A program made the translations under genes and the position numbers. Below, one piece after another: positions 36,865 to 63,735 of a stretch of 64,000 bases of DNA. The notes below the pieces were generated by a model, which was given only the letters and a program-made list of their open reading frames with translations, was not told where the DNA came from and ran no database searches. Origin of the DNA: an uncultured Gammaproteobacteria bacterium (lineage in GTDB: Bacteria; Patescibacteriota; Patescibacteriia; UBA9934); assembly GCA_964613815.1 (NCBI GenBank), contig CAZTKG010000001.1:136895-200894 (forward strand), in the 5' to 3' direction. The first letter of the stretch is position 1; each line of letters starts with the position of its first letter.

Positions 36865-37057
36865 CCTCCCGTTTGGGTGGTTTTTTGATCTGATGGGATC
36901 AGATCAACCCTTCGTAGCTCGCAGAGCGCCTGCCCTTCGAAGCTTCAGCGAAGAATGGGAAGAACGGGTCCCCTCTTTTTTTTACAGAGCTCCTCATATT
37001 GACAAATCACCTATTCCCTACTATGGTTCTTCTCCGTTCATTCAAATGGGAGAGCAA

Positions 37058-41461: not shown

Positions 41462-42682
41462 TTATTTTTGGATAATTGCTGAGCCAATGAGCTCATCTTC
41501 TTTGTAAAATGCGACAAACTGCCCTGGGGCGACTGCCCATTGCGGGACCTTGAATGTGACAGTGAGTTGATCTTCGATGAATTGGTATTCGCAGTCTTGC
41601 AGCTCCTGACGATAACGAATGCGGGCTTTAAGGGGAGTGTTTTGGTTGGTTTTGATGGCGCCCTTGGTTGTTTCTGTGATGTTTGTTGCAATGATCGTCG
41701 TCTTGAGGAGGATTTGATCTTCGCGATGCACTACAACGAGCTCGTTTGTGCCTGGACGTTTTTCTGCCACGTAAAGAGGATCACCGCCGCCAATGCCGAG
41801 GCCGTGGCGTTGGCCGATGGTGTAGTAGGCGTGGCCCTTGTGGGTTCCGAGGATGTCGCCGGCGGCGTTGATGATGTTTCCTGGTGATGGCGGGATTTGG
41901 TCGCTGAGGAATTCTTCTAGGGTGATGTGACCGACGAAGCAGAGGCCTTGGCTATCCTTCTTTGTTGCGACGGATAGGCTGTGCGTCTCTGCGATGCTGC
42001 GGACTTCTGATTTTTCGATGTTACCGATTGGGAACATCACTTTTTTTAGTTGGTCTTGCGTGAGACGGCAAAGGAAGTAGGATTGGTCCTTGTTTTTGTC
42101 GATACCAGCGAGGAGGTGGACTAGCTCACCTCCTTCCGATGCGCCTTCTCCTCTCCCATCCTGAGGAGGGGGATAGTTGCCCCCGACGGAAAGATCTTGT
42201 GCGGATGGCAACGTCCCTGCCGCGCGGCATGAGATCCTTCCGTCCGTCGGCTGGCGCTCTCCCTCCTCAGGATAGGAGGCAATATCAGCTGCGTTGAGTA
42301 TGCGCGCGTAGTGGCCTGTTGCGAGATAGTCGCAGCCCAAATCCTCTAACTGATCGAGAAGAAGGCCGAACTTCATATATTGATTACAGAGCACGTCTGG
42401 ATTTGGTGTTCGGCCGGCGGCGTATTCGTCTACCATGTATTGATAGACTTTTTCGCGGTACTGCTCTTCGAAGTCGAAGGTGTGGAGCTCGATATCTAAT
42501 TGCGCGGCAACCCGCATCGCATCTCGACGCTCTGCACGCCAAGTACATTCGCTGCCTGGGATGTTTTCTGACCAGTTTTTCATGAACGCGCCGACGACCT
42601 CGTAACCTTGTTCCAATAGCAAAACAGCCGACACACTTGAGTCGACGCCACCGCTCATAGCCAGGAGAACGCGTTTTTTCAT
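41462..42682 (-). CDS. mnmA: tRNA-specific 2-thiouridylase MnmA, carrying an in-frame REP-B insertion
   Basis: PP-loop LAMSGGVDSSV; conserved ...LATGHYARI and ...KNKDQSYFLCRL. Between them lies about 45 aa (DIASYPEEGERQPTDGRISCRAAGTLPSAQDLSVGGNYPPPQDGRGEGASEGG) that is the translation of REP-B. Confidence 0.85.
   Translation of the reverse strand: MKKRVLLAMSGGVDSSVSAVLLLEQGYEVVGAFMKNWSENIPGSECTWRAERRDAMRVAAQLDIELHTFDFEEQYREKVYQYMVDEYAAGRTPNPDVLCNQYMKFGLLLDQLEDLGCDYLATGHYARILNAADIASYPEEGERQPTDGRISCRAAGTLPSAQDLSVGGNYPPPQDGRGEGASEGGELVHLLAGIDKNKDQSYFLCRLTQDQLKKVMFPIGNIEKSEVRSIAETHSLSVATKKDSQGLCFVGHITLEEFLSDQIPPSPGNIINAAGDILGTHKGHAYYTIGQRHGLGIGGGDPLYVAEKRPGTNELVVVHREDQILLKTTIIATNITETTKGAIKTNQNTPLKARIRYRQELQDCEYQFIEDQLTVTFKVPQWAVAPGQFVAFYKEDELIGSAIIQK
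42153..42279. repeat. REP-B palindromic element inserted in-frame inside mnmA
   Basis: TCCCATCCTGAGGAGGGGG...GACGGAAAGATCTTGTGCGGATGGCAACGTCCCTGCCGCGCGGCATGAGATCCTTCCGTCCGTCGG...CCTCCTCAGGATAGGAGG. Confidence 0.85.
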
Positions 42683-42727
42683 AGTTTGAGATGATAGCTT
42701 GGATTTTGATGTTTGGCAACTGCCTCA

Positions 42728-42800
42728 CTCCCATCTCGACCTTGTGGAGGGATCTGATTGCGGCAGGTGCAAGATCTCTCCACAAGGTCGAGATGGGAGG
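42728..42800. repeat. REP-A palindromic element
   Basis: TCCCATCTCGACCTTGTGGAGGGATCTGATTGCGGCAGGTGCAAGATCTCTCCACAAGGTCGAGATGGGAGG. Confidence 0.85.
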
Positions 42801-43401: not shown

Positions 43402-43475
43402 TCCCGGATCGTCTAACGGCAGGACACCAGGTTCTGGTCCTGGTAATCGGGGTTCGAGTCCCTGTCCGGGAACCA
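43402..43475 (+). tRNA. tRNA-Gln (anticodon CUG), CCA encoded
   Basis: Manual cloverleaf. Acceptor TCCCGGA/TCCGGGA. D-arm GTCT-AACGGCA-GGAC. Anticodon arm CCAGG-TTCTGGT-CCTGG (anticodon CTG). T-arm CGGGG-TTCGAGT-CCCTG. Discriminator A, then CCA. Confidence 0.75.
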
Positions 43476-43507: not shown

Positions 43508-43538
43508 CTTGGTTTGATGTCTATTTGCAAATCCCCCC

Positions 43539-43612
43539 TTCCCATCTCGACCTTGTGGAGAGATCTTTGGATTTCGGAGGCTACAGGATCTCTCCACAAG
43601 GTCGAGATGGGA
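43539..43612. repeat. REP-A palindromic element
   Basis: CCCATCTCGACCTTGTGGAGAGATCTTTGGATTTCGGAGGCTACAGGATCTCTCCACAAGGTCGAGATGGGAG. Confidence 0.85.
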
Positions 43613-43624
43613 GATTGAGGTCTT

Positions 43625-43677: not shown

Positions 43678-43905
43678 ATGCGACAAGTTGTCAGCCTCTC
43701 TTTAGCTCCCGCAGATGTCAAAAAACTCAAAAGGCGCGTGAAGGAGCGTGGCCTTGCTTCATCTAGCGCATATGTGAAGCAGCTCCTCGACGAAGACGAG
43801 AATCTCATCTCCGCAGACGAGCTTGAATCCATCATTAAAGAAGGAGATGCAGAGTATGATCGCGGAGAGACGGTTTCTGCAAAATCTGTTCTCGATCTTC
43901 TATGA
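43678..43905 (+). CDS. Type II antitoxin (RelB/ParD/Phd-like, 75 aa)
   Basis: Small acidic protein immediately upstream of, and ATGA-overlapping, a RelE/ParE-like toxin. AT-rich. Confidence 0.55.
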   Translation: MRQVVSLSLAPADVKKLKRRVKERGLASSSAYVKQLLDEDENLISADELESIIKEGDAEYDRGETVSAKSVLDLL

Positions 43906-44174
43906 TCGTTCGTGATATTAAATTCACAAAAAGATTTATCAAGGACCTCTCTGGGCTCAGTGAGACTGATCGTGACTTAGTTGCGAAAAAGGAGTCTATC
44001 TTTAGATCCAACCCCCTTCATCCTTCTCTTCGGCTTCATCGACTCAAGGGCAATTTGTCTGGCGTGTGGTCTATTTCTGTGACAAATAAGATTCGCATAA
44101 TTTTCAAACGGAAGGACGGAGGAGTTATCCTGTTTTACTCTGTTGGAAAACACGACATTTACAAAAACCTATAA
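43902..44174 (+). CDS. Type II toxin, RelE/ParE superfamily (90 aa)
   Basis: HRLKGNLSGVWSISVTNKIRIIFKRKDGGVILFYSVGKHDIY matches the RelE/ParE C-terminal fold signature (h.LkG...W..R...YRiiY...). Confidence 0.7.
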   Translation: MIVRDIKFTKRFIKDLSGLSETDRDLVAKKESIFRSNPLHPSLRLHRLKGNLSGVWSISVTNKIRIIFKRKDGGVILFYSVGKHDIYKNL

Positions 44175-46076: not shown

Positions 46077-46192
46077 AATGCGTCTGCGTGTCATCCTGAG
46101 GCACGAAGGACCCATTCGGTTGGCACTACCTATATCGGTCGACGTCGATCGTGGGCACGTATGCAGCCGAATGGATCCTTCGTGCCTCAGGA
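46077..46192. repeat. REP-C palindromic element (GTCATCCTGAGGCACGAAGGACCCATTCGG...CCGAATGGATCCTTCGTGCCTCAGGATGAC), a full long inverted repeat
   Basis: About 21-bp perfect terminal arms plus inner CATTCGG/CCGAATG arms. Related to REP-B (shared CATCCTGAGG core) and to partial copies at 58940 and 62868. Confidence 0.8.
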
Positions 46193-46223
46193 TGACACAG
46201 GGAGGATCTGCTATAATCCACGC

Positions 46224-46679: not shown

Positions 46680-47048
46680 TCAGGCGGACAAGTGGTAGAT
46701 GTTGAGGCCGTCGGCGCGCCAGGCGAGGCCGATGAGGCCGCCTCGGTGGAGCATTGCGGCCGCGCCTCCATCGGCGATGATGGTGAGCATGGTGCGGAGC
46801 CCCTCTAGGTAATGGACTCTGTATGGGATCCCCTGAACCCAAGGGATGTCACCACTGAGTATCACGTCCATCCCCCGCTCATTGAACTTGACCCTAATGC
46901 CAGCGGCATAGAATATCACGCCCCAGTCTGTGGTCATGTTACGGAAGATACGCCTGACATTGGCACGGTCGTTCTTGTGAGCCCCCGGGGTTTGGATGAT
47001 TTCGGATGCGTCTTCGCTGGTCACGACGGTGATCTGCTGTACTTTCAT
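46680..47048 (-). CDS. Hypothetical protein (122 aa from MKVQQITVV)
   Basis: ORF; divergent from the phosphatase gene. Confidence 0.4.
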   Translation of the reverse strand: MKVQQITVVTSEDASEIIQTPGAHKNDRANVRRIFRNMTTDWGVIFYAAGIRVKFNERGMDVILSGDIPWVQGIPYRVHYLEGLRTMLTIIADGGAAAMLHRGGLIGLAWRADGLNIYHLSA

Positions 47049-47130
47049 GATTTCTCCAAGGTGCGCATGCAGACTATCATGCGGACATGGCATTGTCCAT
47101 GCTATTTCCTATCATCAAATCAGACCACTT

Positions 47131-47583
47131 ATGCAAGACCACGAAGCAATTGAAAGCGTTAGCCAGATCACAGACCAACTCTATGTTGGGTCGAGTTTTT
47201 GTTGCCAGACGCATTTTTCGGAGAAGCTTTTGGCATTAGGGATCTCGGCGGATGTTTCGATGCAGCTTGAGAGGATCGACCGAGCTGAGGGGGCGGAGTC
47301 TTACTTGTGGCTGCCAGTGATGGATATGACGGCGCCGAGTCAGGATGTTTTGAAGATTGGAGCGGATCATATCGCGAGCTTGATCGCGCTCGGGCGGAAG
47401 GTGTTTGTGCATTGTCGGAATGGGCATGGACGGGCGCCGACGATGGCGAGCGCGTACCTTGTCAGCACTGGAATGAACGCGGAGGAGGCAATGCATCTTG
47501 TTATGAAAAAGCGGCCCGAGACGCATATGAATGCGGAGCAGCGGGCCGCTGTTGAGGAGTTTGCTGTTCGGTTTTCCGCGTAG
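47131..47583 (+). CDS. Dual-specificity / protein-tyrosine phosphatase (CX5R family)
   Basis: Active-site P-loop VHCRNGHGRAPTM (HCxxGxxR) with an upstream Asp-containing loop. Start taken at MQDHEAIES. Confidence 0.7.
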   Translation: MQDHEAIESVSQITDQLYVGSSFCCQTHFSEKLLALGISADVSMQLERIDRAEGAESYLWLPVMDMTAPSQDVLKIGADHIASLIALGRKVFVHCRNGHGRAPTMASAYLVSTGMNAEEAMHLVMKKRPETHMNAEQRAAVEEFAVRFSA

Positions 47584-48294: not shown

Positions 48295-50010
48295 CTAATC
48301 CACCACACTCCCTCCAAACGCTAACGCGAGGTCGTGGAGGTTTTTTTCGTCTTCTGAGAGTTCGAGGATTGGTTCGATTTTCACGGAGCCCTGCATGACC
48401 TTGCCTACCGCTTCTTCGATGATGTCGAGATGCTTGCGGGCGTTACAGGTTTCGAAGTGAAACGCGTGCGTGAATGAGAGGACAACGACGTTTCCTCGGA
48501 TAGATGTTGGCTTTGCGGACTTGAGGACTAAGGGTAGGGCAACGCTTCTTTTCGCGACCAGCTCGCAGCAGCGGCCCCATTTTGCGGCAAGGTCTTCTGC
48601 GGTGAATTTGGCTAGCGGGGCTTCATCTGTTGTTTTTTTTTGAGGTTCTTCATTCCCGTCCTGAGGAGGGAGAGCTGAGCCGACTGACGGAAGGATCTCT
48701 TCCGACTTCCCCATATCGACCGGTGTGGAGATATCTTGCATTTTGGCCGCGGCCTGAGATCTCTCCGCAGGGTCGAGATAGGAGGCGGGAGTTTGTGTTG
48801 GCGGTGATGACTGCGGCGATCGTGATGGCTGTGCCGCGTGGGGGGAGATCCTTCCGTCGAGGGGGGTATCCCTCGACTCAGGATGGGAGGGAGGCGGAGA
48901 CTGTGTCGGTGATAGCAGCTGTGCTGACCCTTCTTCCTCGCAGAATTCTACAAATGCAATTTCTATTGGGAGCTGTGGGAAGAGCTCGTGTGCCGGTCTT
49001 GATCTTGCGGTGAGCAGGAGGTCGATGAGTTTTCTTGCGCGTGCGGACGGGAGCGCGGTTGCGGATGATTTGAGGTTTGCGAGCGCTTGTTCGTCGTAGC
49101 GTTCTGAAAGGTTGCCTCCGAGGCCGGTGAGCATGACGTCGCGGACGTATTCGATGAGTTCGTCGAGGAGGTGGCGGACGGAGGTACCTGCTGCTGTGGC
49201 CTCGGTGAGCTTGTCGATGGAGGCTTTTGCGTCCGATGTGGCGAGGGTTGTGGTCATTTGTGCAACGAGATCGGCGTGGGTCTTTGGAAGGACAAGCGAG
49301 GCGTCGTCTGTGGATATCTCGTCGAGGCCGAGTGCGAGGACCTGTTCGAGGATGCTTTCTGCGTCTCGGAGGCAGCCTTCTGAAAGGCGGGCGATGGATG
49401 GGTAGACTTCGTCGGCGATCTTGACACCTTCTTTTTCTGACAGCAGCTTTAGGCGACCGATCATGCCTTTCATGGAGATTCTGTGAAAATCAAAACGCTG
49501 ACATCTGGAAAGGATGGTTTGCGGGATTTTGTGGAGCTCGGTTGTGGCGAGGATGAAGATAACGTGTGCTGGAGGTTCTTCGAGGGTTTTGAGGAGGGCG
49601 TTGAACGCTGAGGTTGAAAGCATGTGGACCTCGTCGATGATGAAGACTTTTTTGCGATCTCCGCCTGGAGAGACGCGGGCGGCTTCGATGATGTTTTCTC
49701 GGACGTTGTCGACACCTGTGTGAGACGCGGCGTCGATTTCTGCGACGACCATTGTTCGGCCGTTTGTAATGCCTTCGCAGGACTGGCACGTACCGCAGGG
49801 CTCGTAGCCGTCTTTTAGCTCTCCGCAGTTGACGGCTTTTGCGAGGAGGCGGGCCGTGGTCGTCTTCCCTACTCCGCGCGGGCCGGAGAAAATGTAGGCA
49901 TGAGCGACTTTGTCTTGTTTTATTTGGTTTTGAATGGTTTTGGAGACGTGCTCTTGGCCGCAGACGTCTGCGAATGTTTGTGGGCGGTATTTTCGATAGA
50001 GTGAAGGCAT
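48295..50010 (-). CDS. dnaX: DNA polymerase III subunit gamma/tau DnaX, carrying in-frame REP-B plus nested REP-A insertions in the linker region
   Basis: Start MPSLYRKYRPQTFADVCGQEHV (ATG 50010; the track ORF extends 52 codons into the upstream REP-B). Walker A GPRGVGKTT, Zn module CGTCQSC, SRC motif, conserved C-terminal domain. About 88 aa of translated repeat sits between domain III and the C-terminal domain. Confidence 0.85.
   Translation of the reverse strand: MPSLYRKYRPQTFADVCGQEHVSKTIQNQIKQDKVAHAYIFSGPRGVGKTTTARLLAKAVNCGELKDGYEPCGTCQSCEGITNGRTMVVAEIDAASHTGVDNVRENIIEAARVSPGGDRKKVFIIDEVHMLSTSAFNALLKTLEEPPAHVIFILATTELHKIPQTILSRCQRFDFHRISMKGMIGRLKLLSEKEGVKIADEVYPSIARLSEGCLRDAESILEQVLALGLDEISTDDASLVLPKTHADLVAQMTTTLATSDAKASIDKLTEATAAGTSVRHLLDELIEYVRDVMLTGLGGNLSERYDEQALANLKSSATALPSARARKLIDLLLTARSRPAHELFPQLPIEIAFVEFCEEEGSAQLLSPTQSPPPSHPESRDTPLDGRISPHAAQPSRSPQSSPPTQTPASYLDPAERSQAAAKMQDISTPVDMGKSEEILPSVGSALPPQDGNEEPQKKTTDEAPLAKFTAEDLAAKWGRCCELVAKRSVALPLVLKSAKPTSIRGNVVVLSFTHAFHFETCNARKHLDIIEEAVGKVMQGSVKIEPILELSEDEKNLHDLALAFGGSVVD
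48640..48905. repeat. Composite repeat inside dnaX: REP-B left arm (48640-48710), a degenerate REP-A (48711-48784), about 60 nt, and the REP-B right arm (about 48845-48905)
   Basis: TCCTGAGGAGGGAGAGCTGAGCCGACTGACGGAAGGATCTC | CCCATATCGACCGGTGTGGAGATATCT...AGATCTCTCCGCAGGGTCGAGATAGG | ...GAGATCCTTCCGTCGAGGGGGGTATCCCTCGACTCAGGATGGGAGGG. Confidence 0.8.
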
Positions 50011-50046: not shown

Positions 50047-50190
50047 CGAGTCTGACATGCCTCCCATCCTGAGGAAGGAGAGCGCCAGCCGACGGACGGA
50101 AGGATCTCGTGCCGCGCGGCATGGACGTCGATGTCCGCACGGGATCCTTCCGTCGGGGGCGGCCATCCCCCTCCTCAGGATGGGAGCTCA
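50047..50190. repeat. REP-B palindromic element in the dnaX 5' leader
   Basis: CCTCCCATCCTGAGGAAGGAGAGCGCCAGCCGACGGACGGAAGGATCTCGTGCCGCGCGGCATGGACGTCGATGTCCGCACGGGATCCTTCCGTCGGGGGCGGCCATCCCCCTCCTCAGGATGGGAGC. Confidence 0.8.
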
Positions 50191-50261: not shown

Positions 50262-50897
50262 TTGGAACCCAAACTCTCTATCTTCGCTCCTCACGCCGAC
50301 AATCGCGATGCACTCTACAGGGTCATCGGCGAACTCGCCAAGGCCGAACCCATCTCTCGCGACAAGATCCGCCTGACCCTCAGCGAGCGCTGCCACCTCC
50401 TCTTCTACCGCATGCACACGCAGGTGAAAGAAGTATCCACGCCCTTCTACCTCATGTGCTTTGGGTCGGGGTCGGAAGAAGCGCTCCAGCAGGCCACCGA
50501 ATCGATTCACGGTGCCGAGATCTGTGCGATGGGCAAGATCCTTGGCGCGCGGTGGCACGAGCTCCGCGGAGCCTTTGCTCTCGAGAGCATCCGCGACATG
50601 GGCATCGCTATCTCGCCGGCATCGCTCAAGTTCCTCGCCAACGATCCCGCAGAACCCGACCGAGACAAGCTCCTTCTGACGGTCCCTGATCTCATCGGAG
50701 GAGACAACGACATCGCCCTCTTCCACGCGCTGGGAATCGCTGAACTCGAGAAGATGTACCCCAACGCCCGCATCGACCAGATCGTCATCCACCGTGGCTT
50801 CGATGGCGTGCCGCGCTCGTGGATCATCCACATGCGCCCGGTTACGCCGATCCAGCGAATCCTTGCGGCACTGGGTCGTGGCCCTGCCGGGAAGTGA
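50262..50897 (+). CDS. Hypothetical protein (211 aa), monocistronic
   Basis: Upstream TTGACA-N17-TAGCGT. Downstream terminator CCCCCCTCCGGGGG plus a T-run. No TM segments. Confidence 0.45.
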   Translation: MEPKLSIFAPHADNRDALYRVIGELAKAEPISRDKIRLTLSERCHLLFYRMHTQVKEVSTPFYLMCFGSGSEEALQQATESIHGAEICAMGKILGARWHELRGAFALESIRDMGIAISPASLKFLANDPAEPDRDKLLLTVPDLIGGDNDIALFHALGIAELEKMYPNARIDQIVIHRGFDGVPRSWIIHMRPVTPIQRILAALGRGPAGK

Positions 50898-50911
50898 TTC
50901 GGACAGCGTCC

Positions 50912-50940
50912 GCCCCCCCTCCGGGGGTTTCTTTTTTTTC
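50912..50940 (+). terminator. Rho-independent terminator (CCCCCCTCCGGGGGTTTCTTTTTTTT)
   Basis: GC stem and a long T-run. Confidence 0.6.
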
Positions 50941-50983
50941 AAAATCTGCTACGGTCTTAGCGCCCTTTTCACCCGGAGGCCTT

Positions 50984-51631
50984 GTGCCCGTTATCACCCC
51001 TGAAGAAGCCCCCTTCCCTCCCGTGATCTACGTCGTCAATGACGGCCTAGTGCCATTCCCGGATGGATTCACGTCTAATCCGCTCAATGCCATGATCGTA
51101 CCCCATCTGTTTTACTTTTTGGGTCGTTCGGTGCGATATGCAGGTGACGACCCAGTGATCTGTCTTGTCATGACCGACACTTCATTTCTGACGATCATGT
51201 CTGCGATTGCAGCTATTCAGGCACAATTCCATGACACGCCGCTCTTCATCCACGGGCTCCTGTCCATCGCCCCCTCGGGCCAGGATATGTTGGCGGATTT
51301 TGTGTACTTCCCTCGTCACGGCAGTAATGGCGCCTGTCCAGATGTCCCGCCGTCGGTTCTGGCGAAGTTCAAGCTTCTCGTGAACCCAGCGACCGTGGTG
51401 CCGCCCGGCCCCGCTGGACCGGACTGGCATCGACGCGTCAAGCAAGCCGACCGCGTCACTGTGCGGTCGCCCTACAGCGACCCGCTCAAGCATCGCCTCT
51501 TTCTCGACGCGGTCATGGTCGCGCTGAACGGAAGGCCGTTCAACACCCGTCCGCGCCTGGATAGCGTGAACTCGTTCAGACTCCATGCGGCCGGCATGAC
51601 TGCCGACTCCTGGCTCGTTCGGCACGGGTAG
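50984..51631 (+). CDS. Hypothetical protein (215 aa), GTG start preceded by GGAGG
   Basis: The track ORF starts at 50819; GGAGG at 50975-50979 and an in-frame GTG at 50984. Confidence 0.4.
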   Translation: MPVITPEEAPFPPVIYVVNDGLVPFPDGFTSNPLNAMIVPHLFYFLGRSVRYAGDDPVICLVMTDTSFLTIMSAIAAIQAQFHDTPLFIHGLLSIAPSGQDMLADFVYFPRHGSNGACPDVPPSVLAKFKLLVNPATVVPPGPAGPDWHRRVKQADRVTVRSPYSDPLKHRLFLDAVMVALNGRPFNTRPRLDSVNSFRLHAAGMTADSWLVRHG

Positions 51632-51728
51632 CGTGCTCAACCTCTTCTGATTTGGAAGGGGATTTTTTATTGACATTAGCCACTGGCCTTGATAGCGTTT
51701 GGTCGCACACTCGCACCTTGGAGATATC

Positions 51729-52253
51729 GTGGTTTTTATTCACAGCGAGCAGTTCCCCCTCCGCACTCGGTCACCTGCCCATGTGTACCCTGCCGACATG
51801 TGCAGCGTCACGGTTGCAAGCTTTGTCGCGAGAGGCGAGAGGCACTACATCGTCGCGCACTCGCAGGATGAGAGGTTTAGCAGCGAGCGCCACTGGGAAG
51901 CGATCATTCGTCAACACACGAGCCTCATTCCCGACCTGGGTACGCCTACCGACTTCAAGTACTTCTTCATGAACCTCGATACCGGAACTACGTACTGCGG
52001 CGAATTTTGGACCCCGGGCGTCCTCGACCATCTCGACCTTCTCCTGAACCGATTGACGCATCGAGCGAGAGGCGATACGCACTTGATCCTCTGTCCGGAT
52101 GTATTCCGTATAGCGCCGCTCGCTGGAGAATTCTTCTTCTTGATGCTCTTGCGTATTCGGAAGCAGGGCCAGTCCTACACCGCCAACCCGACGTGCGAAC
52201 TGTCACGTGGCAATAGCCTCCTTCCTGTGGAATGGGTCGTGACCTGCCACTAG
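51729..52253 (+). CDS. Hypothetical protein (174 aa), GTG start preceded by GGAG
   Basis: The promoter TTGACA-N17-TAGCGT ends at 51698. The track's TTG start at 51699 is therefore implausible. GGAG-5 nt-GTG at 51729. A terminator follows the stop. Confidence 0.4.
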   Translation: MVFIHSEQFPLRTRSPAHVYPADMCSVTVASFVARGERHYIVAHSQDERFSSERHWEAIIRQHTSLIPDLGTPTDFKYFFMNLDTGTTYCGEFWTPGVLDHLDLLLNRLTHRARGDTHLILCPDVFRIAPLAGEFFFLMLLRIRKQGQSYTANPTCELSRGNSLLPVEWVVTCH

Positions 52254-52347: not shown

Positions 52348-52962
52348 ATGACCCCCTCGCCCATTCACACCATCCTGTCCCTCCAGGGGCCCGGTAGATT
52401 GCTTCGCCGTCATCTTCCCGGTGATGACCCCAATTTCCGACGCTTGCTTGCAGAGGGCGCGCGGCTGTACTTCTTGGACTTGGCGGACGGGACTACGAGT
52501 TGCTTCGCGATTTCTGAGTCAGATGCACAGCATCTTGGCAAGACGGTGAGCTCGTTTCTTCATAGCCTTTGCACGTTTGTCTCCAAGCGATACCTGTTCG
52601 TCCCGCCTCTGCCCCGCCATCCTCATGATGACCCCTGCATTCCGAATGGCGACTGTATGTTCGATGAGCTGATCTCCTTTGGACTGACCTTGAGCCCGAT
52701 GTCTGTTCAGCCGATCGTTCCCGAGGAGCGACCTGGCGTGAGCGACCCTCTTGCCGCGTGGCTTGCGGACATTGGCGATGCGCAGCACTTGATTCTGCGG
52801 ATTCCTTGGACGGATGTGGAGAGCGGCAATCCTCAGCACTGGGTTGGGATTGTTTTGCGTCAGCTCGATCGACTGCTCGGGTTCGGCGTTCATGTTCAGC
52901 TCGCTGGGAATTGGGGGGATGATCCTCGATGCCTGCTTCTGAATGTGATTCGGCGTTCGTAG
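52348..52962 (+). CDS. Hypothetical protein (204 aa), monocistronic
   Basis: AGGAG ribosome-binding site 8 nt before the ATG. Terminator ACCACCGAGAGATCGGTGGT plus T7 after the stop. Confidence 0.45.
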   Translation: MTPSPIHTILSLQGPGRLLRRHLPGDDPNFRRLLAEGARLYFLDLADGTTSCFAISESDAQHLGKTVSSFLHSLCTFVSKRYLFVPPLPRHPHDDPCIPNGDCMFDELISFGLTLSPMSVQPIVPEERPGVSDPLAAWLADIGDAQHLILRIPWTDVESGNPQHWVGIVLRQLDRLLGFGVHVQLAGNWGDDPRCLLLNVIRRS

Positions 52963-52970
52963 AGCGCGAA

Positions 52971-52998
52971 ACCACCGAGAGATCGGTGGTGTTTTTTT
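52971..52998 (+). terminator. Rho-independent terminator (ACCACCGAGAGATCGGTGGTGTTTTTTT)
   Basis: 8-bp stem, GAGA loop, T-run. Confidence 0.6.
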
Positions 52999-53002
52999 CG
53001 CC

Positions 53003-53078
53003 CCCCCATCTCGACCTTGTGGAGAGATCTTGCAGTCCTGCCGTGATCAGATCTCTCCACAAGGTCGAGATGGGAGCG
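53003..53078. repeat. REP-A palindromic element between convergent genes
   Basis: CCCCCATCTCGACCTTGTGGAGAGATCTTGCAGTCCTGCCGTGATCAGATCTCTCCACAAGGTCGAGATGGGAGCGG. Confidence 0.85.
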
Positions 53079-56167: not shown

Positions 56168-56216
56168 TCCCATCTCGACTGAAATGGAGAGATCTCTCCG
56201 CAAGGTCGAGATGGGA
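56168..56216. repeat. REP-A palindromic element, short form
   Basis: TTCCCATCTCGACTGAAATGGAGAGATCTCTCCGCAAGGTCGAGATGGGAAT. Confidence 0.85.
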
Positions 56217-56222
56217 ATATGA

Positions 56223-57611: not shown

Positions 57612-57717
57612 ATGGAGGGAATGATAACGGGAAAGTGGGAGGTATGGCAATGATATCCGCCTTGACAATATGCATTTTTTCTGGTAAGCCTTCTCCCTGC
57701 TCATTCAGGATACAAAC

Positions 57718-58296
57718 ATGAAAACCTTTCTCATCCGCGTTCTCCCTGTTCTCGCCCCGTTTCTGGGAATCGTGCTCTGCGTTGTGAGTATATTTTCGAA
57801 GAAGCTTGATCTTTCACTGATCAACCTCCCCTTGTTCGTCGTGTACCTTCTTCTTGGGTTCGTTCTCGCTCCGGTTTATGCGCGGCTCTATTCTTCTGTC
57901 ACGCAAGACGCTGAATATCTACACGCCTTGACACGAGTCTCTACAACTGACTCCGAGCTGGAGCCAGACGTGGAGCGGCTGTCAAAAGTCACCTTGAAGA
58001 TGAAACATATGCTGCGTCTATTTTTCATCTCTGAGCGTCGCCGCGCGCTTCTCTATATGCAGGCAAAGGCGCTCATTAGCCTTGCCTTGATGGAATCGAT
58101 GGATCGTCGCGCACTCATCGAGATCGCTGGCCAGTTTTACAAGCTGGTTGATACCATGTCGCCCGCGTCATTAGATCGACTGTTTCTGGATGTTCCTGGT
58201 GTCGAAGATGCAGCCAAACGCATGCGATCTGCGCGACCAATCTCGAACATGAAAAATTCGGATTGTGAATCAATGCTGCGGTCAATCTCCTCGTAA
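57718..58296 (+). CDS. Small two-TM membrane protein with a cytoplasmic helical domain (192 aa); member 1 of an 8-gene tandem array
   Basis: Own promoter (TTGACA...), terminator (CTGAGACCTTGAGTCTCAG plus T-run). TM hairpin in the first 60 aa. Confidence 0.5.
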   Translation: MKTFLIRVLPVLAPFLGIVLCVVSIFSKKLDLSLINLPLFVVYLLLGFVLAPVYARLYSSVTQDAEYLHALTRVSTTDSELEPDVERLSKVTLKMKHMLRLFFISERRRALLYMQAKALISLALMESMDRRALIEIAGQFYKLVDTMSPASLDRLFLDVPGVEDAAKRMRSARPISNMKNSDCESMLRSISS

Positions 58297-58313
58297 ACGC
58301 TTGGAGCTCCGCT

Positions 58314-58343
58314 ATCCTGAGACCTTGAGTCTCAGTTTTTGTT
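58314..58343 (+). terminator. Rho-independent terminator
   Basis: CTGAGAC-CTTGA-GTCTCAG, then TTTTTGTTT. Confidence 0.55.
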
Positions 58344-58404
58344 TCACTATTGATCTCTGCCCATTTTTCTGCTAGCCTTAGCACGCACCTCCCACGGAGA
58401 ACCC

Positions 58405-58902
58405 ATGTCTCAAATGCTCAAAAGCCCTGCTCTCCTCATCGTTCAATGGGCCCTCTGCGCCGGCTCCATCATCTCGGCTATCATCTTCGGCATACTGTGG
58501 ATGGAAAATCCCGCGCTCGCCTTCATCCCGATGATCTCCACGTTCACGTTCGTCATCCTTGCGCTCGCGGTCAGTGGATATGCGACGGTCCGGAACATGC
58601 AGCTCATGAAGAGCGCCTCACTGAGCCTCTGCGATCTGGCTCGCGCTATCAAGCAGGACGCCACCGGCCTGTTCACGGCCGAGTACTTCCTCGGTCTGGC
58701 CAATAACGCAGCGACTGCCGAGGAGTTCGGAGGCCTGATCGATGATCACGGTCTCGCCGCCGCGCTCAGCGCATTCAACTACAAGAACCCGAACTTCCGG
58801 CTCCGTCGCCCGCTGCAGAAGGTCTACATGGAGCGCATTCGGGCGTACCGCGACGCACCTCCGCTCACCGCAGCGCCGACCGAGGCCGATGGCGGCGTCT
58901 GA
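58405..58902 (+). CDS. Small two-TM membrane protein (165 aa); array member 2
   Basis: Promoter TTGATC-N17-TAGCCT. Ribosome-binding site GGAG. Terminator hairpin GTGAGGCAAGTGCCTCAC. Confidence 0.5.
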   Translation: MSQMLKSPALLIVQWALCAGSIISAIIFGILWMENPALAFIPMISTFTFVILALAVSGYATVRNMQLMKSASLSLCDLARAIKQDATGLFTAEYFLGLANNAATAEEFGGLIDDHGLAAALSAFNYKNPNFRLRRPLQKVYMERIRAYRDAPPLTAAPTEADGGV

Positions 58903-58939
58903 TCTCTCGTGAGGCAAGTGCCTCACTCGCCCAGCAATG

Positions 58940-59010
58940 GGTGATTTTTTATATGCCGGGGGCATATAAACCCTTCGTAGCTCTACGAGCGAAGAACGGG
59001 TGGACACCCC
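58940..59010. repeat. REP-C partial copy in reverse orientation (TTTTTTATATGCCGGGGGCATATAAACCCTTCGTAGCTCTACGAGCGAAGAACGGGTGG)
   Basis: Its reverse complement aligns, at about 80 percent identity, to 62890-62950 (CCATTCTTCGCTGAAGCTTCGAAGGGTTCATATGCCCCCGGCATATGAAAAAAATCACC). Confidence 0.65.
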
Positions 59011-59197
59011 GCAGGATCGAGGCAGGAATCGATGCACCGTACCTATACAGCTTCGCAACCTCCTTGTCGGCCTGTGCGACCTCGGCGCCGGGAGCATCTT
59101 CGCGGCGCATCCAGAAGCGCCGAGATTCGGAGAGAGCTCGCCAGGAGCTGGCAAGCACTGGTTGAGACTTGATCACCCGTTTGGGTGTTTTTTTCTT

Positions 59198-59232
59198 GAC
59201 ATCACGCAAGAAATCAGCCTAGTATGTAGTGT
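59198..59232 (+). promoter_or_regulatory. Sigma70-like promoter TTGACA-18-TAGTAT, with ribosome-binding site AAGGAGG, for 59252..59758
   Basis: cTTGACAtcacgcaagaaatcagccTAGTATgtagtgttctttgccAAGGAGGcaacGTG. Confidence 0.55.
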
Positions 59233-59251
59233 TCTTTGCCAAGGAGGCAAC

Positions 59252-59758
59252 GTGGCTGATCGTATTTATCGCGGCAACTGGTCTGACTTTCTTTTCACCG
59301 GCATGATCCTCATGGTTGGCGGCGCTTTCCTCTTGGCGAGTAGCGCGGATAGCCATGGCGAGCTTGTCGTGTTCATTCCGGTAGGTACCGGCATGGTTCT
59401 CCTGATTGCCTCCGCCTGCTGCATTTTCGGGCTCTCCGCAACGCATGCGAAGTCCCTCGAGAGCCTGCACGAGACGACGTGGTACCTCATCCATCACCTG
59501 TGCCATGCAGATGCTCGTCACCCCATGTTCGATACGTGGGCGCGGCGTATTCTGGAGAACTGTGACCAGATCGGCATGCATGCAGAGGAGTTTGAGAAGC
59601 TCTTGCGCGGCGATGGGATTCTGTCTCAGATCAACACCTTTCTCTATCTCAATTCCGACTTTGAGATGAGTCGCGGCCTGAACGAGGTTCTGCGGCGGCT
59701 CGTCAAGGAGTACCGCCAGTCGCTCGAAGGCGCCGAGCCGGATGAGCAGGCGGTCTAG
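59252..59758 (+). CDS. Small two-TM membrane protein (168 aa, GTG start); array member 3
   Basis: AAGGAGG-4 nt-GTG. The track ORF starts at 59000, upstream of the promoter and terminator. TM hairpin FLFTGMILMVGGAFLLA / VFIPVGTGMVLLIASACCIFGL. Confidence 0.5.
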   Translation: MADRIYRGNWSDFLFTGMILMVGGAFLLASSADSHGELVVFIPVGTGMVLLIASACCIFGLSATHAKSLESLHETTWYLIHHLCHADARHPMFDTWARRILENCDQIGMHAEEFEKLLRGDGILSQINTFLYLNSDFEMSRGLNEVLRRLVKEYRQSLEGAEPDEQAV

Positions 59759-59870
59759 ACTTCCTTTTTTGGGGAGTTTTTTTATTTTCTCATCGTCTCA
59801 TTCCCTATTTCGCAGCACGCTACATGGAGGTAGGTTGAATGACGGAGAGCGATGATTCAGCGACCCACGC

Positions 59871-59899
59871 TTGACAACCCCTCCATTTTTTGCTAGCAT
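59871..59899 (+). promoter_or_regulatory. Sigma70-like promoter TTGACA-17-TAGCAT for 59949..60401
   Basis: Read directly. Confidence 0.55.
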
Positions 59900-59948
59900 T
59901 CTCAGCTGTTGATACAGTAAAATCAGCCCTTTCCACGGAGACAACGCC

Positions 59949-60401
59949 ATGCGTAGCCCCTACCTGTACCTCATCCCCCTCAGCGTTCTCCTCTCTTCCG
60001 GCGTCTTTGCGTTCGGGACCCACATGAGCCTTCTCCACATCCTCGCCGGCCTCCTTGCTGTTGGCCTCTCTACTGCCGGCGCTGTCTACCTCGCCGGATT
60101 GGCCACCGATCTACGGAGCGCCATGTTCGACAGCATGGACGACAGCGCGCGGTTCATCGGAACTCGCCAGTACTGCGAGCTGCGTATCCGAGCGTTCCTG
60201 AACCGCGCCGTGCTCTGTATGAGCCCGAGTGAGTTCCAGGACCTTCTCGGCGCCGAGCGGATGGGACCCCACATCCTCCCCGCGCTCGCGATCTTCGTCG
60301 AGCGCAATCCGGAATTCGAGCTCCGCGCTCCTCACCGGCGCGCGATCATGTCGGCCGTGACTCAGCACCTCCTGCGCTCAAGCGAGATCGCTGTCGCATA
60401 G
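59949..60401 (+). CDS. Small two-TM membrane protein (150 aa); array member 4
   Basis: Ribosome-binding site GGAG. TM hairpin. Terminator CGCCCGTTCTTGGGCG plus T7. Confidence 0.5.
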   Translation: MRSPYLYLIPLSVLLSSGVFAFGTHMSLLHILAGLLAVGLSTAGAVYLAGLATDLRSAMFDSMDDSARFIGTRQYCELRIRAFLNRAVLCMSPSEFQDLLGAERMGPHILPALAIFVERNPEFELRAPHRRAIMSAVTQHLLRSSEIAVA

Positions 60402-60404
60402 CTC

Positions 60405-60432
60405 TTCGCCCGTTCTTGGGCGGTTTTTTTAT
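60405..60432 (+). terminator. Rho-independent terminator
   Basis: CGCCCG-TTCT-TGGGCG plus TTTTTTT. Confidence 0.6.
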
Positions 60433-60486
60433 TGATACCTCTTGGCACCATCACCCTTTCATGGGTGATTTTTTTCCTAGATCTCC

Positions 60487-60518
60487 TTGACATTTCTCGT
60501 GTTTTCCTGTTTTATAAC
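60487..60518 (+). promoter_or_regulatory. Sigma70-like promoter TTGACA-18-TTTATAAC for 60543..61019
   Basis: Read directly. Confidence 0.5.
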
Positions 60519-60542
60519 CCTCCGTTCATTCTAGGAGCACCC

Positions 60543-61019
60543 ATGGAAATCCATCTCAATTCCGTTGACTCACTATTCACCAAACGCGGCCGCGCTTTTC
60601 TCGCGACGTTTGGCTGCTTGATGATGTGCCTGCTCATCATGGCTGCGTTCAGCGCGAGCGATAAAAGATCCGCGACGCTCCTCGTGATCCCACTTGGGCT
60701 GATGGGAGGATATGTTCTCGACTACTACATGAAGCGAGAAAGTGAGCATCAACTCGTCTTTGACGCTATGCAAGCGCAGATTCCCATGCTTGCCTTGGAT
60801 CTTCGGGGGCTGGAAGCAAATGACCGACGATTTCCGGATCGCGTGAAGCACCTTCTTTCTTGCGCAGTTCTCAGCATGGAACCTGCTGACCTGATCCTTG
60901 TTCTGGAGCGCGCATGCGTTTTTCATCCCGTGCACGAGTATATTCAGACCTTGAATCGGTCGAATGTCTCGCCCGCATCGCTTGCGCGTATGATGGAAGA
61001 GATCCTGGATCACCCATGA
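60543..61019 (+). CDS. Small two-TM membrane protein (158 aa); array member 5
   Basis: AGGAG-6 nt-ATG. The track ORF starts at 60432. Confidence 0.5.
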   Translation: MEIHLNSVDSLFTKRGRAFLATFGCLMMCLLIMAAFSASDKRSATLLVIPLGLMGGYVLDYYMKRESEHQLVFDAMQAQIPMLALDLRGLEANDRRFPDRVKHLLSCAVLSMEPADLILVLERACVFHPVHEYIQTLNRSNVSPASLARMMEEILDHP

Positions 61020-61118
61020 GCTCTCAACGTGATCGCACCTCCCGGTAACGGGCGGTTTTTCTTTTTCCTTGACGCCTTCCTAATAAACTGCTAATGTTCC
61101 ACGTTCTTTGGAGCTATC

Positions 61119-61397
61119 ATGTTTCTTCCCATTCACTTGACTATTCCCACGGCACTGCTCTGGATCGTGGTCGGCTGCTTCCTTGCCCACGGTGTCTGGC
61201 TTGGTCATCATGTTTTCTGGGCCGCCATCGCTGTGCATGTCGTGATGGGGATCACCGGAGCCCTGTGCGTATTCAAGCTCACCACCGAAAACGAGCGTTC
61301 TCGCATGTTCATGCGCCTCTTTTCTGTGATCTCATCTGATCCCGGACTTGATGCGTCCAAGCTTCCGCGTCCTCCCCTTGAGGTTGATGACCCCTGA
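61119..61397 (+). CDS. Small two-TM membrane protein (92 aa); array member 6 (truncated form)
   Basis: Promoter TTGACG-N17-TAATGT, ribosome-binding site GGAG, terminator ACCCCCAAACCGGGGGT. Confidence 0.45.
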   Translation: MFLPIHLTIPTALLWIVVGCFLAHGVWLGHHVFWAAIAVHVVMGITGALCVFKLTTENERSRMFMRLFSVISSDPGLDASKLPRPPLEVDDP

Positions 61398-61401
61398 TGA
61401 C

Positions 61402-61427
61402 AACCCCCAAACCGGGGGTTCTTTTTA
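61402..61427 (+). terminator. Rho-independent terminator
   Basis: AACCCCC-AAAC-CGGGGGTT plus a T-run. Confidence 0.6.
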
Positions 61428-61518
61428 TCAATCATATCGCTCGCCTACTGGTAGACGATATGCTTGACTTTTTGGCTATTTTGACCTAATCTCTGGCTAC
61501 CTGTTCTTTGGAGGTGCG

Positions 61519-62103
61519 ATGAAGCACATCAAGTATCGTCGAGTCCTTCAGGTCATGCTGGGACTGATCCTGCTCCTGTGTATCGTCAGCCACATTGTGA
61601 AAGGCGTAGACCTCGCCCTCTTCAGCGGCCTGATCACTGCTGTTGTTCTCTGGAAGCTACGGAAGCACCCGCTTGACCATCTTCCTGGGCTGCTGCGATC
61701 ACGATATGAGCAACTGCTTGGAGATCGCTATCTGCCGCTGCATCGTGATCAGCATCCGTTTATGAATCAGGCGCTGCGTGGACCAGCAGCAGATCTTCCG
61801 ACAGAGCTGTATGCCCATCATCTTTTCGAGAGCGCCTCTCGACGCGGAGTCGTTATCGGTCAGATGTTTGCGAGGCTACTTCGACTTGCCGACGAGCAGA
61901 TGAACGATGGAAATCCTGCATTTGCAGACAAGCTCCTCGATGAGGCAGCGCGGATCGTTGTCGCCTTGAAGCCTGATGTTGCGCAGCAAGTTGTCGAGGT
62001 CGAAAAGCTCGCTCCGATCGTACGCGCTATGATGACTCCTCAGCGGTATGACAAGGTTCCCCGCCCGTGGGCTGAAGCGCTTTCGGCGGCGAGTGGGGAC
62101 TGA
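61519..62103 (+). CDS. Small two-TM membrane protein (194 aa); array member 7
   Basis: Promoter TTGACT-N17-TAATCT, ribosome-binding site GGAGG, terminator GAGCCGATTTCGGCTC plus T-run. Confidence 0.5.
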   Translation: MKHIKYRRVLQVMLGLILLLCIVSHIVKGVDLALFSGLITAVVLWKLRKHPLDHLPGLLRSRYEQLLGDRYLPLHRDQHPFMNQALRGPAADLPTELYAHHLFESASRRGVVIGQMFARLLRLADEQMNDGNPAFADKLLDEAARIVVALKPDVAQQVVEVEKLAPIVRAMMTPQRYDKVPRPWAEALSAASGD

Positions 62104-62105
62104 TT

Positions 62106-62131
62106 CTGAGCCGATTTCGGCTCTTTTTTTA
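62106..62131 (+). terminator. Rho-independent terminator
   Basis: GAGCCGA-TTT-CGGCTC plus TTTTTTT. Confidence 0.6.
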
Positions 62132-62189
62132 TTGACTTACTTCATTATTTGTGCCATCTTAATGATCTGCACCTTCCCCTGGAGAGACT

Positions 62190-62819
62190 ATGAAATCCTC
62201 CCTTTTCCGCCTTGCCGCTTGGATGGTCCCCTCGATCGTTCCGGCGCTCGGGGCGTCCGCGTCTGCGTGGGCTGTGTTCGAGGTCGGCGGTACCACTCCG
62301 CTTCTGTTGCTTGGCGCGTTTCTGTTTTGCTGGATCATCAGCATTGGGTTCTCGAAGAGCCTTTTGAACGTGATGAGCACGACGGATATCCTCGTTTCGT
62401 CTGATCGGATGATGCGTGAGCATATTGGTCGCATCATGACGTTCTCACATCGCCAGTTTGACCATCTTCCGCGTGATCTTGACGAGGCGCTTCGGACAAT
62501 GATTGAGCGACGTGACGTGCATCGCGCGACGATCCTCATTGCCATGACGGACTGTCTGGACATGATGGCGCGTCATGCTGACCGCCCTGGCTCTGAAATC
62601 CTGATCCGGCATTTGGGGATTGTGTTCATGACGATTGCTGGACGGCAGAGCACGGATGTCGTTCGTCGACTTCTTACTGAGACGCCGAGCGCTTCGGCAG
62701 CAATGAGGGCCGGCGTTGCCGCGTTTGGCGGCATGGAAGGCTTTGCCATCTATGGCTCGAATGCGATCGGCAAGATCGTGCGGGACTATTACGACTCACT
62801 TCCGGCGAACGCGGCGTAA
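62190..62819 (+). CDS. Small two-TM membrane protein (209 aa); array member 8
   Basis: Ribosome-binding site GGAGAG. TM hairpin. Terminator GACCCGACTGGGTC plus T-run. Confidence 0.5.
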   Translation: MKSSLFRLAAWMVPSIVPALGASASAWAVFEVGGTTPLLLLGAFLFCWIISIGFSKSLLNVMSTTDILVSSDRMMREHIGRIMTFSHRQFDHLPRDLDEALRTMIERRDVHRATILIAMTDCLDMMARHADRPGSEILIRHLGIVFMTIAGRQSTDVVRRLLTETPSASAAMRAGVAAFGGMEGFAIYGSNAIGKIVRDYYDSLPANAA

Positions 62820-62830
62820 GCTGCTATGCG

Positions 62831-62856
62831 TTGACCCGACTGGGTCTTTTTTTCTT
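62831..62856 (+). terminator. Rho-independent terminator
   Basis: GACCC-GACT-GGGTC plus TTTTTTTC. Confidence 0.6.
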
Positions 62857-62867
62857 TGTCGCAGCTG

Positions 62868-62950
62868 TCATCCTGAGGCACGGAGGATCCATTCTTCGCT
62901 GAAGCTTCGAAGGGTTCATATGCCCCCGGCATATGAAAAAAATCACCACC
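62868..62950. repeat. REP-C partial copy (TGTCATCCTGAGGCACGGAGGATCCATTCTTCGCTGAAGCTTCGAAGGGTTCATATGCCCCCGGCATATG...)
   Basis: The left arm matches the REP-C at 46077. The inner part matches the inverted 58940 copy. Confidence 0.65.
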
Positions 62951-63624: not shown

Positions 63625-63653
63625 TTTTTATCATTTTTTTGCGGATTTGTCAA
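63625..63653 (-). promoter_or_regulatory. Sigma70-like promoter TTGACA-17-TAAAAA on the minus strand
   Basis: Reverse complement of 63600-63665: ...TTGACAaatccgcaaaaaaatgaTAAAAA...ggagaaagtCATG. Confidence 0.5.
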
Positions 63654-63659
63654 TGCCTT

Positions 63660-63735
63660 TCCCCATCTCGACCTTGTGGAGAGATCCTGCGCTCTTGATG
63701 ACCGCTAAGATCTCTCCACAAGGTCGAGATGGGAA
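63660..63735. repeat. REP-A palindromic element
   Basis: CCCCATCTCGACCTTGTGGAGAGATCCTGCGCTCTTGATGACCGCTAAGATCTCTCCACAAGGTCGAGATGGGAAGC. Confidence 0.85.

Follow-up and report, generated by a model that had tools for sequence, protein, structure and literature searches.

A tandem array of eight genes for small, predicted two-transmembrane proteins in an uncultured Uhrbacteria-like bacterium

Gene content of the array

The window analysed here, a stretch of 64,000 nucleotides (nt) from contig CAZTKG010000001.1 of an uncultured bacterium, contains at positions 57718-62819 eight non-overlapping open reading frames (ORFs) on the plus strand, g1-g8, which are predicted to encode small proteins with two N-terminal hydrophobic segments each. 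A preliminary description of this DNA had placed a plus-strand tandem array of eight genes here, and the ORFs were indeed found at those positions, each with signals of its own. It is very probable that these are eight separately signalled genes for small helical membrane proteins, located at a variable site and restricted to one lineage. The longest-ORF calls were corrected for g3 (GTG at 59252, giving 168 instead of 252 amino acids (aa)) and for g5 (ATG at 60543, giving 158 instead of 195 aa); public gene callers place both starts identically and call all eight genes. A walk of 9.6 kb past the end of the window showed that the array comprises exactly eight genes, with the gene m9 at one end and cysS at the other. 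The genes are as follows (TM, transmembrane):

57718-58296, plus strand: g1, 192 aa; TM segments at about residues 7-27 and 33-54; C-terminal part of 138 aa; paralog undetectable
58405-58902, plus strand: g2, 165 aa; member of the g2/g3/g4 paralog family
59252-59758, plus strand: g3, 168 aa; GTG start 3' of AAGGAGG; paralog of g2
59949-60401, plus strand: g4, 150 aa; paralog of g2 (z 6.5) and g3 (z 3.1)
60543-61019, plus strand: g5, 158 aa; ATG start 3' of AGGAG; second TM segment weak, placed by inspection
61119-61397, plus strand: g6, 92 aa; two TM segments and a tail of only 39 aa
61519-62103, plus strand: g7, 194 aa; strongly basic N-terminal tail and post-TM2 segment; C-terminal part of 149 aa
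62190-62819, plus strand: g8, 209 aa; first hydrophobic segment possibly a signal peptide (ASASAWA)

Membrane architecture and predicted structure

A hydropathy scan combined with inspection placed two N-terminal hydrophobic segments, separated by a loop of 3-7 residues, in all eight proteins, in agreement with the N-terminal TM hairpin proposed earlier; the automated scan detected just one of them in g5 and in g8, where the second was assigned by inspection. The C-terminal part is shortest in g6 (39 aa), intermediate in g2-g5 (97-108 aa) and longest in g1, g7 and g8 (138-154 aa). The helical domain of about 100 aa that had been attributed to every protein thus fits the length of g2-g5 and the helical models of g2 and g8, but not the range of 39-154 aa spanned by g1 and g6-g8. 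The AlphaFold2 model of g2 (from a three-sequence alignment; predicted local distance difference test score (pLDDT) 70) is all helix, with TM1 at residues 8-34, TM2 at residues 36-84 extending into the cytoplasmic part, and four short helices beyond it that reach residue 150. The model of g8, built from the single sequence (pLDDT 56), is likewise all-helical. Structure models cover these two proteins, at a confidence too low for comparing their folds.

Small proteins with an N-terminal two-TM architecture made up only 4 of 1238 ORFs (0.3%) in 80 related loci, where they never occurred in runs, and none was found outside the array elsewhere in the 64-kb window. The clustering of eight such genes is far beyond chance. 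Under the positive-inside rule, the proteins would adopt an N-in/C-in topology, in which the predicted helical C-terminal domains are cytoplasmic and only 3-7 residues are exposed outside; the strongly basic N-terminal tail and post-TM2 segment of g7 suggest that both of its termini lie inside.

Paralogy and protein-level constraint

Detectable sequence relationships were confined to three neighbouring genes. Smith-Waterman comparison of the C-terminal domains gave z scores of 13.2 for g2-g3, 6.5 for g2-g4 and 3.1 for g3-g4, with all other pairs at 3.0 or below, and the corresponding hhalign probabilities were 79%, 42% and 24%, with the remaining pairs at 5% or below. Against a hidden Markov model (HMM) of g2-g4, g1 and g5-g8 scored no better than their own shuffles (p 0.02 to 0.8). 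These comparisons indicate that g2, g3 and g4 are paralogs, whereas the five others appear to share the architecture only. The diversified paralogs of common architecture claimed in the preliminary description are accordingly to be narrowed: shared architecture without sequence similarity holds for g1 and g5-g8, and paralogy is limited to g2-g4. Full-length similarity between g2 and g3 (z 11.0) and between g2 and g4 (z 5.8) was significant only in the annotated frame (+1) and undetectable at the DNA level, and 9 of the 15 identical residues were encoded by different codons. This bears the signature of protein-level constraint after tandem duplication. All eight genes also have the codon-position pattern GC1>GC2<GC3.

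A single paralogous family of all eight genes was considered and rejected, as only g2-g4 were related by the Smith-Waterman, hhalign and HMM-versus-shuffle comparisons. The '[NSD]P' and 'MxPxE/D..LL' columns that MAFFT aligned as a candidate family signature had no statistical support and were also discarded. A short AVLxMxPxE/D motif is common to g5 and g4 without being statistically significant. As a separate observation, the antisense (-1) frames of g3 and g4 (59252-60401) gave a Smith-Waterman z of 5.5, above the sense-frame z of 2.4, which may be a composition effect.

Expression signals

Each gene is accompanied by predicted signals for its own transcription and translation, located as follows:

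57662-57717, plus strand: g1 control region; TTGACA at 57662-57667, 17 nt, weak -10 box TAAGCC, then AGGA and the ATG
58317-58378, plus strand: g1 terminator (hairpin 58317-58335 and T-run, -9.6 kcal/mol) and g2 promoter-like site (TTGATC-N17-TAGCCT, 58350-58378)
58909-58950, plus strand: g2 double-hairpin terminator (-23.7 kcal/mol) with T-run
59196-59225, plus strand: g3 promoter, TTGACA-N18-TAGTAT
59757-59899, plus strand: g3 terminator (hairpin 59757-59779) and g4 promoter (TTGACA-N17-TAGCAT with extended -10 TG, 59871-59899)
60406-60520, plus strand: g4 terminators (hairpins 60406-60423 and 60450-60469) and g5 -35 box (TTGACA 60487-60492; ambiguous -10 box)
61037-61097, plus strand: g5 terminator (hairpin at about 61037-61056 and T-run) and g6 promoter (TTGACG-N17-TAATGT, 61069-61097)
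61402-61492, plus strand: g6 terminator (hairpin 61402-61420) and g7 promoter (TTGACT-N17-TAATCT, 61464-61492)
62108-62165, plus strand: g7 terminator (hairpin 62108-62123) and g8 -35 box (TTGACT 62132-62137; ambiguous -10 box)
62833-62853, plus strand: g8 terminator hairpin, end of the array

A TTGAC box lies 50-78 nt 5' of the start in seven of the eight genes (TTGATC in g2), against an expectation of 5.6% (binomial tail 1e-8), and full promoters of the form TTGAnn-N17/18-TAnnnT were found for g2, g3, g4, g6 and g7, three of which have an extended -10 element (TGcTA) that recurs in the orphan gene u0 beyond the nearby ATPase gene. The -10 boxes of g1, g5 and g8 are poor or ambiguous, so that the near-consensus promoter claimed for every gene was somewhat overstated. 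A generic promoter scanner picked out just g3 and g4 and showed no enrichment over shuffles across the region. The g1 control region stands back to back with a promoter-like site of cysS on the minus strand (57650-57621). Seven genes have GGAG 4-16 nt 5' of the start, as compared with a background of 6% of ATGs (binomial tail 3e-8); the GGAG-type site ascribed to all eight holds with the exception of g1, which has AGGA. The claim that each gene has its own rho-independent terminator stands in full: a hairpin (-8 to -24 kcal/mol) followed by a T-run was found 3' of all eight genes, with two at g4. Enrichment of Shine-Dalgarno sites, -35 boxes and terminators reached p of about 1e-8 in each case. 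Terminators of this kind occur at about 30 of the 70 ORFs across the whole window.

Homolog searches and host lineage

Large-database searches covered g2-g4 and g8. When the g2-g4 profile was run exhaustively with HMMER against 1.84 billion cluster representatives, the three input proteins were the sole matches, indicating that this genome contains no further detectable paralog, and a word-indexed search of 5.8 billion proteins with g3 and g8 returned self matches only. Clusters at 90% identity had 1-4 members, all from this organism, including one single-residue variant of g1. Scans of the eight proteins, m9 and u0 against Pfam, NCBIfam, PADLOC and PHROGs gave noise only, far below the family cut-offs (0 PADLOC families for the eight proteins), and no match was obtained by tblastn of g1-g8 against phages and plasmids, by IMG/VR scans or by phmmer against PDB sequences. 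Neither homologs of g1-g8 nor runs of two-TM genes were found in 80+80 related loci, which had been gathered by a scan with the ATPase (genome contigs) and a scan with cysS (metagenome contigs). The array genes thus appear to be orphans of a single species-level lineage, and the sequences of the g2-g4 family and of the five singletons appear to be new. That no described family would be recognised was borne out by the Pfam, NCBIfam, PADLOC, PHROGs and PDB sequence searches; of the suggested undescribed system, the lack of any family match stood, but 'system' overstates what are single-lineage orphans.

The 824-aa ATPase has its best relatives, at 68% identity or less, in metagenome-assembled genomes (MAGs) labelled Candidatus Uhrbacteria or Patescibacteria, and the host is therefore an uncultured Uhrbacteria-like bacterium of the candidate phyla radiation (CPR) without a close sequenced relative. 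Public copies of the window, including JGI 3300008954 Ga0115650_1000592 (86 kb) and an ENA scaffold of 579 kb, are 100% identical to it, and the locus is identical in all six public assemblies; the nearest cysS otherwise found in JGI metagenome contigs is 64% identical.

Genomic neighbourhood

Across the array and its flanks, the gene order is hrcA-grpE-dnaK-dnaJ (plus); a DUF5667 gene, an extracytoplasmic function (ECF) sigma factor gene and the gene for a 174-aa multi-TM protein (minus); the gene for a 216-aa secreted protein and m9 (plus); the array; and then cysS, hyp173 (a gene for a 173-aa hypothetical protein) and the ATPase. The ATPase matches the Pfam families DUF87, T4SS-DNA_transf, TrwB_AAD_bind and TraG-D_C, with DUF8128 in a precomputed annotation. 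It is a chromosomal gene of wide distribution, for which tblastn found 463 relatives in GTDB representative genomes. Of the 59 related loci whose sequence extends far enough upstream, 52 have cysS no more than 3 kb upstream of the ATPase, and 53 have a hyp173 homolog immediately upstream of it. Upstream of cysS, each relative inspected has different genes. Because the cysS-hyp173-ATPase cluster is conserved without the array and the content upstream of cysS varies, the array lies at a variable site and is close to the ATPase by coincidence. The link with a type IV secretion system (T4SS)-like ATPase in the preliminary description therefore falls, as none of the loci that retain the cluster contains the array or a homolog of its genes.

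The suggestion to search for neighbouring toxin genes led to none among the flanking genes, in a stretch that reaches from about 15 kb upstream to some 9.6 kb past the end of the window. The nearest toxin-like matches, a HigB/YafQ-like toxin (43902-44174) and a DSP phosphatase (46996-47583), are more than 10 kb away with housekeeping genes in between. No integrase, transposase or phage gene was found within about 10 kb on either side of the array, no tRNA adjoins it (the only tRNA is a tRNA-Gln at 43402-43475), and no Rfam small RNA (sRNA) was found in its region.

Several features of the surroundings were recorded in their own right. The block of the ECF sigma factor, the DUF5667 anti-sigma-like protein and the 174-aa multi-TM protein, located beyond the end of the window, is inverted relative to related genomes, with the orientation of the 216-aa secreted protein kept. 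Between dnaX and the ATPase lie three orphan single-gene units, u000 (50819-51631), u00 (51699-52253) and u0 (52348-52962), which have the TTGACA/TGcTA promoter style of the array and terminators of their own but no TM hairpin; scans of u000 and u0 gave no Pfam match, and in five of the eight relatives inspected the gene after the ATPase matches the dnaX N-terminus. Another variable stretch, beside tRNA-Gln, holds a two-gene pair resembling a toxin-antitoxin module (43678-44174), whose 90-aa product is weakly HigB/YafQ-like, and the dual-specificity phosphatase, which also matches the polymorphic-toxin-associated Tc-R-P family. Two ORFs at a distance of about 40 kb from the array (17052-17555 and 18943-19455) have type IV pilin-like N-termini (MNPSNQKGFTLIELLIV... 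and MKNQKGFSLAETMIYV...), suggestive of a type IV pilus or competence cluster.

Repeats and composition

Repeated elements of the window and the largest spacer of the array are listed below:

58945-58982 (plus strand) and 62903-62940 (minus strand): 38-nt element TTTTTTATATGCCGGGGGCATATAAACCCTTCGTAGCT, an inverted pair with 92% match that brackets g3-g8 and contains an 8-bp hairpin
58903-59251, no strand: geneless 349-nt spacer between g2 and g3, with a copy of the 38-nt repeat (58945-58982), a terminator-like hairpin (59174-59187) and the g3 promoter
42153-42281, 50058-50186 and 48646-48889: palindromic repeat of about 130 nt, CTCCCATCCTGAGGAGGGGGA ... TCCCTCCTCAGGATGGGAG, in frame within mnmA, with inverted and diverged copies at dnaX
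42713-42799, 43524-43613, 52988-53076 and 63645-63735: dispersed hairpin resembling repetitive extragenic palindromic (REP) elements, CCCATCTCGACCTTGTGGAGAGATC plus its complement at a distance of about 20 nt; lone arms at 48741-48784 and 56174-56217
46088-46122 and 46164-46198: short repeat TGTCATCCTGAGGCACGAAGGA(C/T)CCATTC as an inverted pair; single copies at 62866-62894 (just after g8) and 36933-36958

The window contains only two copies of the 38-nt element, where none is expected by chance, and they stand directly 3' of the terminators of g2 and of the convergent gene m9. A degraded ninth gene was looked for in the g2-g3 spacer and not found, and the spacer has no homolog or Rfam match; it could represent a lost ninth unit or encode a small RNA. 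The repeat of about 130 nt adds about 45 aa to mnmA between the ATGHYAR and KDQSYFL motifs, and has two further copies at dnaX, an inverted one (89%) at the 5' end of its long ORF and a diverged, longer one within the gene; it resembles the in-frame palindromic-element insertions of Rickettsia (Rickettsia palindromic element (RPE)-like). The REP-like family is intergenic, and its sites include both flanks of the cysS-ATPase cluster and a position just past m9.

Overall GC content of the array (0.55) is similar to that of neighbouring regions, and GC at third codon positions (GC3) is 0.72-0.79 in g2-g4 as compared with 0.55-0.65 in housekeeping genes. In the array, Tandem Repeats Finder (TRF) gave three chance repeats of fewer than 2.2 copies, no invertible promoter was found, and the longest homopolymers are the T7 tails of terminators, the others being T6-T7 tails and two T6 runs in promoter spacers.

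Interpretation and alternative explanations

The reading that we favour, with a probability of roughly 0.45, sees in the array an accessory cluster that is confined to one lineage, encodes helical proteins tethered to the membrane on its cytoplasmic side, and owes part of its genes to tandem duplication. On this account, g2, g3 and g4 arose by tandem duplication and have been maintained under protein-level constraint; the cluster is inserted at a variable site between the conserved ECF-sigma/DUF5667/secreted-protein block and cysS; and each protein would be expressed constitutively and serve as a binding module tethered to the membrane, not as an enzyme or a transporter. The predicted N-in/C-in topology favours membrane-anchored binding modules and argues against a role in surface variation or direct host contact; the host-interaction role once considered conceivable thus loses ground, as only 3-7 residues would be exposed. 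The proteins might further form a protective repertoire, of the immunity or exclusion type, that intercepts something arriving at the inner face of the membrane. Because tandem duplication, extreme divergence and restriction to one lineage form the pattern of conflict genes, protection ranks as the likeliest role, even though, taken by itself, it is rather unlikely. More doubtful still is the wider idea of a previously unseen, fast-evolving repertoire of independently expressed proteins that neutralises toxins, phage or host factors at the inner membrane face of a CPR episymbiont, and that would constitute both a new protein family and an immunity or exclusion array of a new type, lacking relatives in present databases.

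Several points weigh against the favoured reading. The codon-usage log-likelihood, for which housekeeping genes in the window served as training set, comes to about 0 per codon in g1-g8 versus +0.4 to +0.5 in housekeeping genes, and for several array genes the antisense -1 frame ties with the annotated frame. Five of the eight genes (g1 and g5-g8) have neither paralogs nor homologs, so that any selection on these is conjectural. The topology is ambiguous for g1 and g5, whose loops contain KK and KR; expression of the array genes is predicted from signals in the DNA; and no toxin, phage or defence partner gene is adjacent, which makes a protective role conjectural.

Much of this evidence also fits young or decaying orphan ORFs of little or no function, with hydrophobic N-termini as a by-product of local composition and at most g2-g4 maintained. 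Besides the codon scores, the five genes without paralogs and the lack of homologs in the database searches (g2-g4 profile, g3 and g8), the region has many long antisense ORFs and a T-rich plus strand (AT skew about -0.2), and further orphan single-gene units lie beyond the ATPase; T-rich sequence yields TM-like peptides (PMC7005711), and the origin of bacterial ORFans is unresolved (PMC12315717). Such an origin is a serious rival but nevertheless rather unlikely, given the well-spaced Shine-Dalgarno sites and terminators of all eight genes, the -35 box at a fixed distance in seven, the frame-specific conservation among g2-g4, and the repetition of one architecture eight times in a row against a 0.3% background, in ORFs that fill the space between predicted promoters and terminators of a small, gene-dense genome (largest scaffold 579 kb). 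The complete expression signals and the protein-level conservation of g2-g4 argue for established genes over proto-genes. Phage holins and exclusion proteins are often small proteins with two TM segments, and cargo or a remnant of a mobile element or prophage (holin-like or superinfection-exclusion), integrated beside cysS, would accord with a lineage-specific insertion at a variable site, with the 38-nt inverted repeat bracketing g3-g8 and with the elevated GC3 of g2-g4. Yet the roughly 10 kb on either side hold no integrase, transposase or phage gene, no tRNA is adjacent, the genes have no similarity to phage, plasmid, IMG/VR or PHROG sequences, the overall GC is similar to that of neighbouring regions, and the 38-nt element, each copy of which follows a terminator, resembles in its behaviour the other short palindromic repeats dispersed in this genome, so we regard this origin as quite unlikely.

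Small hairpin membrane proteins are also typical of T4SS parts, and the array starts 2.1 kb from an ATPase with T4SS-type Pfam matches, from which accessory subunits or adaptors (VirB2/VirB3-like) of this VirD4/HerA-like ATPase could be proposed. This is very improbable: matches to T4SS components in Pfam or NCBIfam at E<=1 did not rise beyond noise, the array is divergently transcribed with cysS between it and the ATPase, and the widespread ATPase keeps its hyp173 and cysS neighbours in 52-53 of the 59 relatives without any homolog or analogous array. The monocistronic tandem arrangement and the divergent sequences could finally be taken for a phase-variable or expression-variable surface family, one of the options named in the preliminary description, engaged in host contact, a notion to which the episymbiotic lifestyle proposed for CPR bacteria (PMC8406219) would lend itself. 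Promoters and coding regions, however, contain no simple-sequence repeats or long homopolymers beyond the T7 tails, an invertible promoter is missing, predicted external loops span just 3-7 residues, and the locus does not vary among the six public assemblies, which makes this the least credible of the explanations considered.

Comparison with known systems

The array resembles the immunity-gene repertoires of bacteriocin, colicin and polymorphic-toxin systems, such as orphan immunity arrays and the small multi-TM proteins that confer immunity to pore-forming colicins, in that small inner-membrane proteins are encoded in tandem by divergent, lineage-specific neighbours within a variable region. 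It differs from them in the absence of sequence or profile similarity and of an adjacent toxin, bacteriocin or export gene, in having monocistronic genes rather than toxin-immunity operons, and in that most of each protein is a predicted cytoplasmic helical domain rather than an intramembrane one. The two-TM proteins of phage superinfection exclusion and holin systems (T4 Imm and class II holins) share the hairpin anchor, small size and narrow lineage, and g6 is holin-sized, whereas the other seven proteins are much larger, with C-terminal domains of 97-154 aa, and the array lacks a phage context as well as any match among PHROG, phage, IMG/VR or BFVD entries. Effectors associated with cyclic-oligonucleotide-based antiphage signalling systems (CBASS), the pyrimidine cyclase system for antiphage resistance (Pycsar) and retrons likewise combine an N-terminal two-TM module with a soluble domain; unlike these, the array has no PADLOC match and no cyclase, reverse transcriptase or sensor partner nearby, and its C-terminal domains match no nucleotide-sensing fold.

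VirB2/VirB3 subunits of T4SS are comparable as hairpin membrane proteins near a VirD4-like ATPase, but the array lacks a family match and VirB4, VirB6 and VirB8 genes, and its synteny with the ATPase is not kept in relatives. With ORFans and de novo TM proteins from T-rich sequence (PMC12315717, PMC7005711) it has in common the lack of homologs, an unusual codon usage, N-termini rich in TM segments and a site of insertion flanked by conserved genes, while differing in the complete, repeated expression signals and in a duplicated g2-g4 family that is conserved at the protein level. Two further candidates were rejected. Type I toxin-antitoxin membrane toxins have fewer than about 60 aa, one TM segment and an antisense RNA, as compared with 92-209 aa, two hydrophobic segments and no Rfam sRNA here. 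A known anti-phage defence system did not fit either, as no PADLOC model matched and the neighbours are cysS, m9, the secreted protein and the ECF sigma block.

Biological significance

Genomes of CPR/Patescibacteria are tiny, and about half of their genes have no assigned function, many of these encoding small membrane proteins. Taken as a phenomenon, such a species-specific tandem cluster, made up of orphan genes for small membrane proteins, is of a familiar type in a CPR genome. The significance of this array, which is limited to one uncultured lineage, has neither partner genes nor homologs and does not lend itself to generalisation, is modest. If both expression and protection proved true, the array would represent, for episymbionts, an immunity or exclusion repertoire of a new, membrane-anchored kind. 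The locus is in any case a clean example of how small membrane-protein genes arise and persist in CPR genomes, in which three members, g2-g4, bear the traces of a tandem duplication and of a later divergence so far advanced that no similarity is left at the DNA level.

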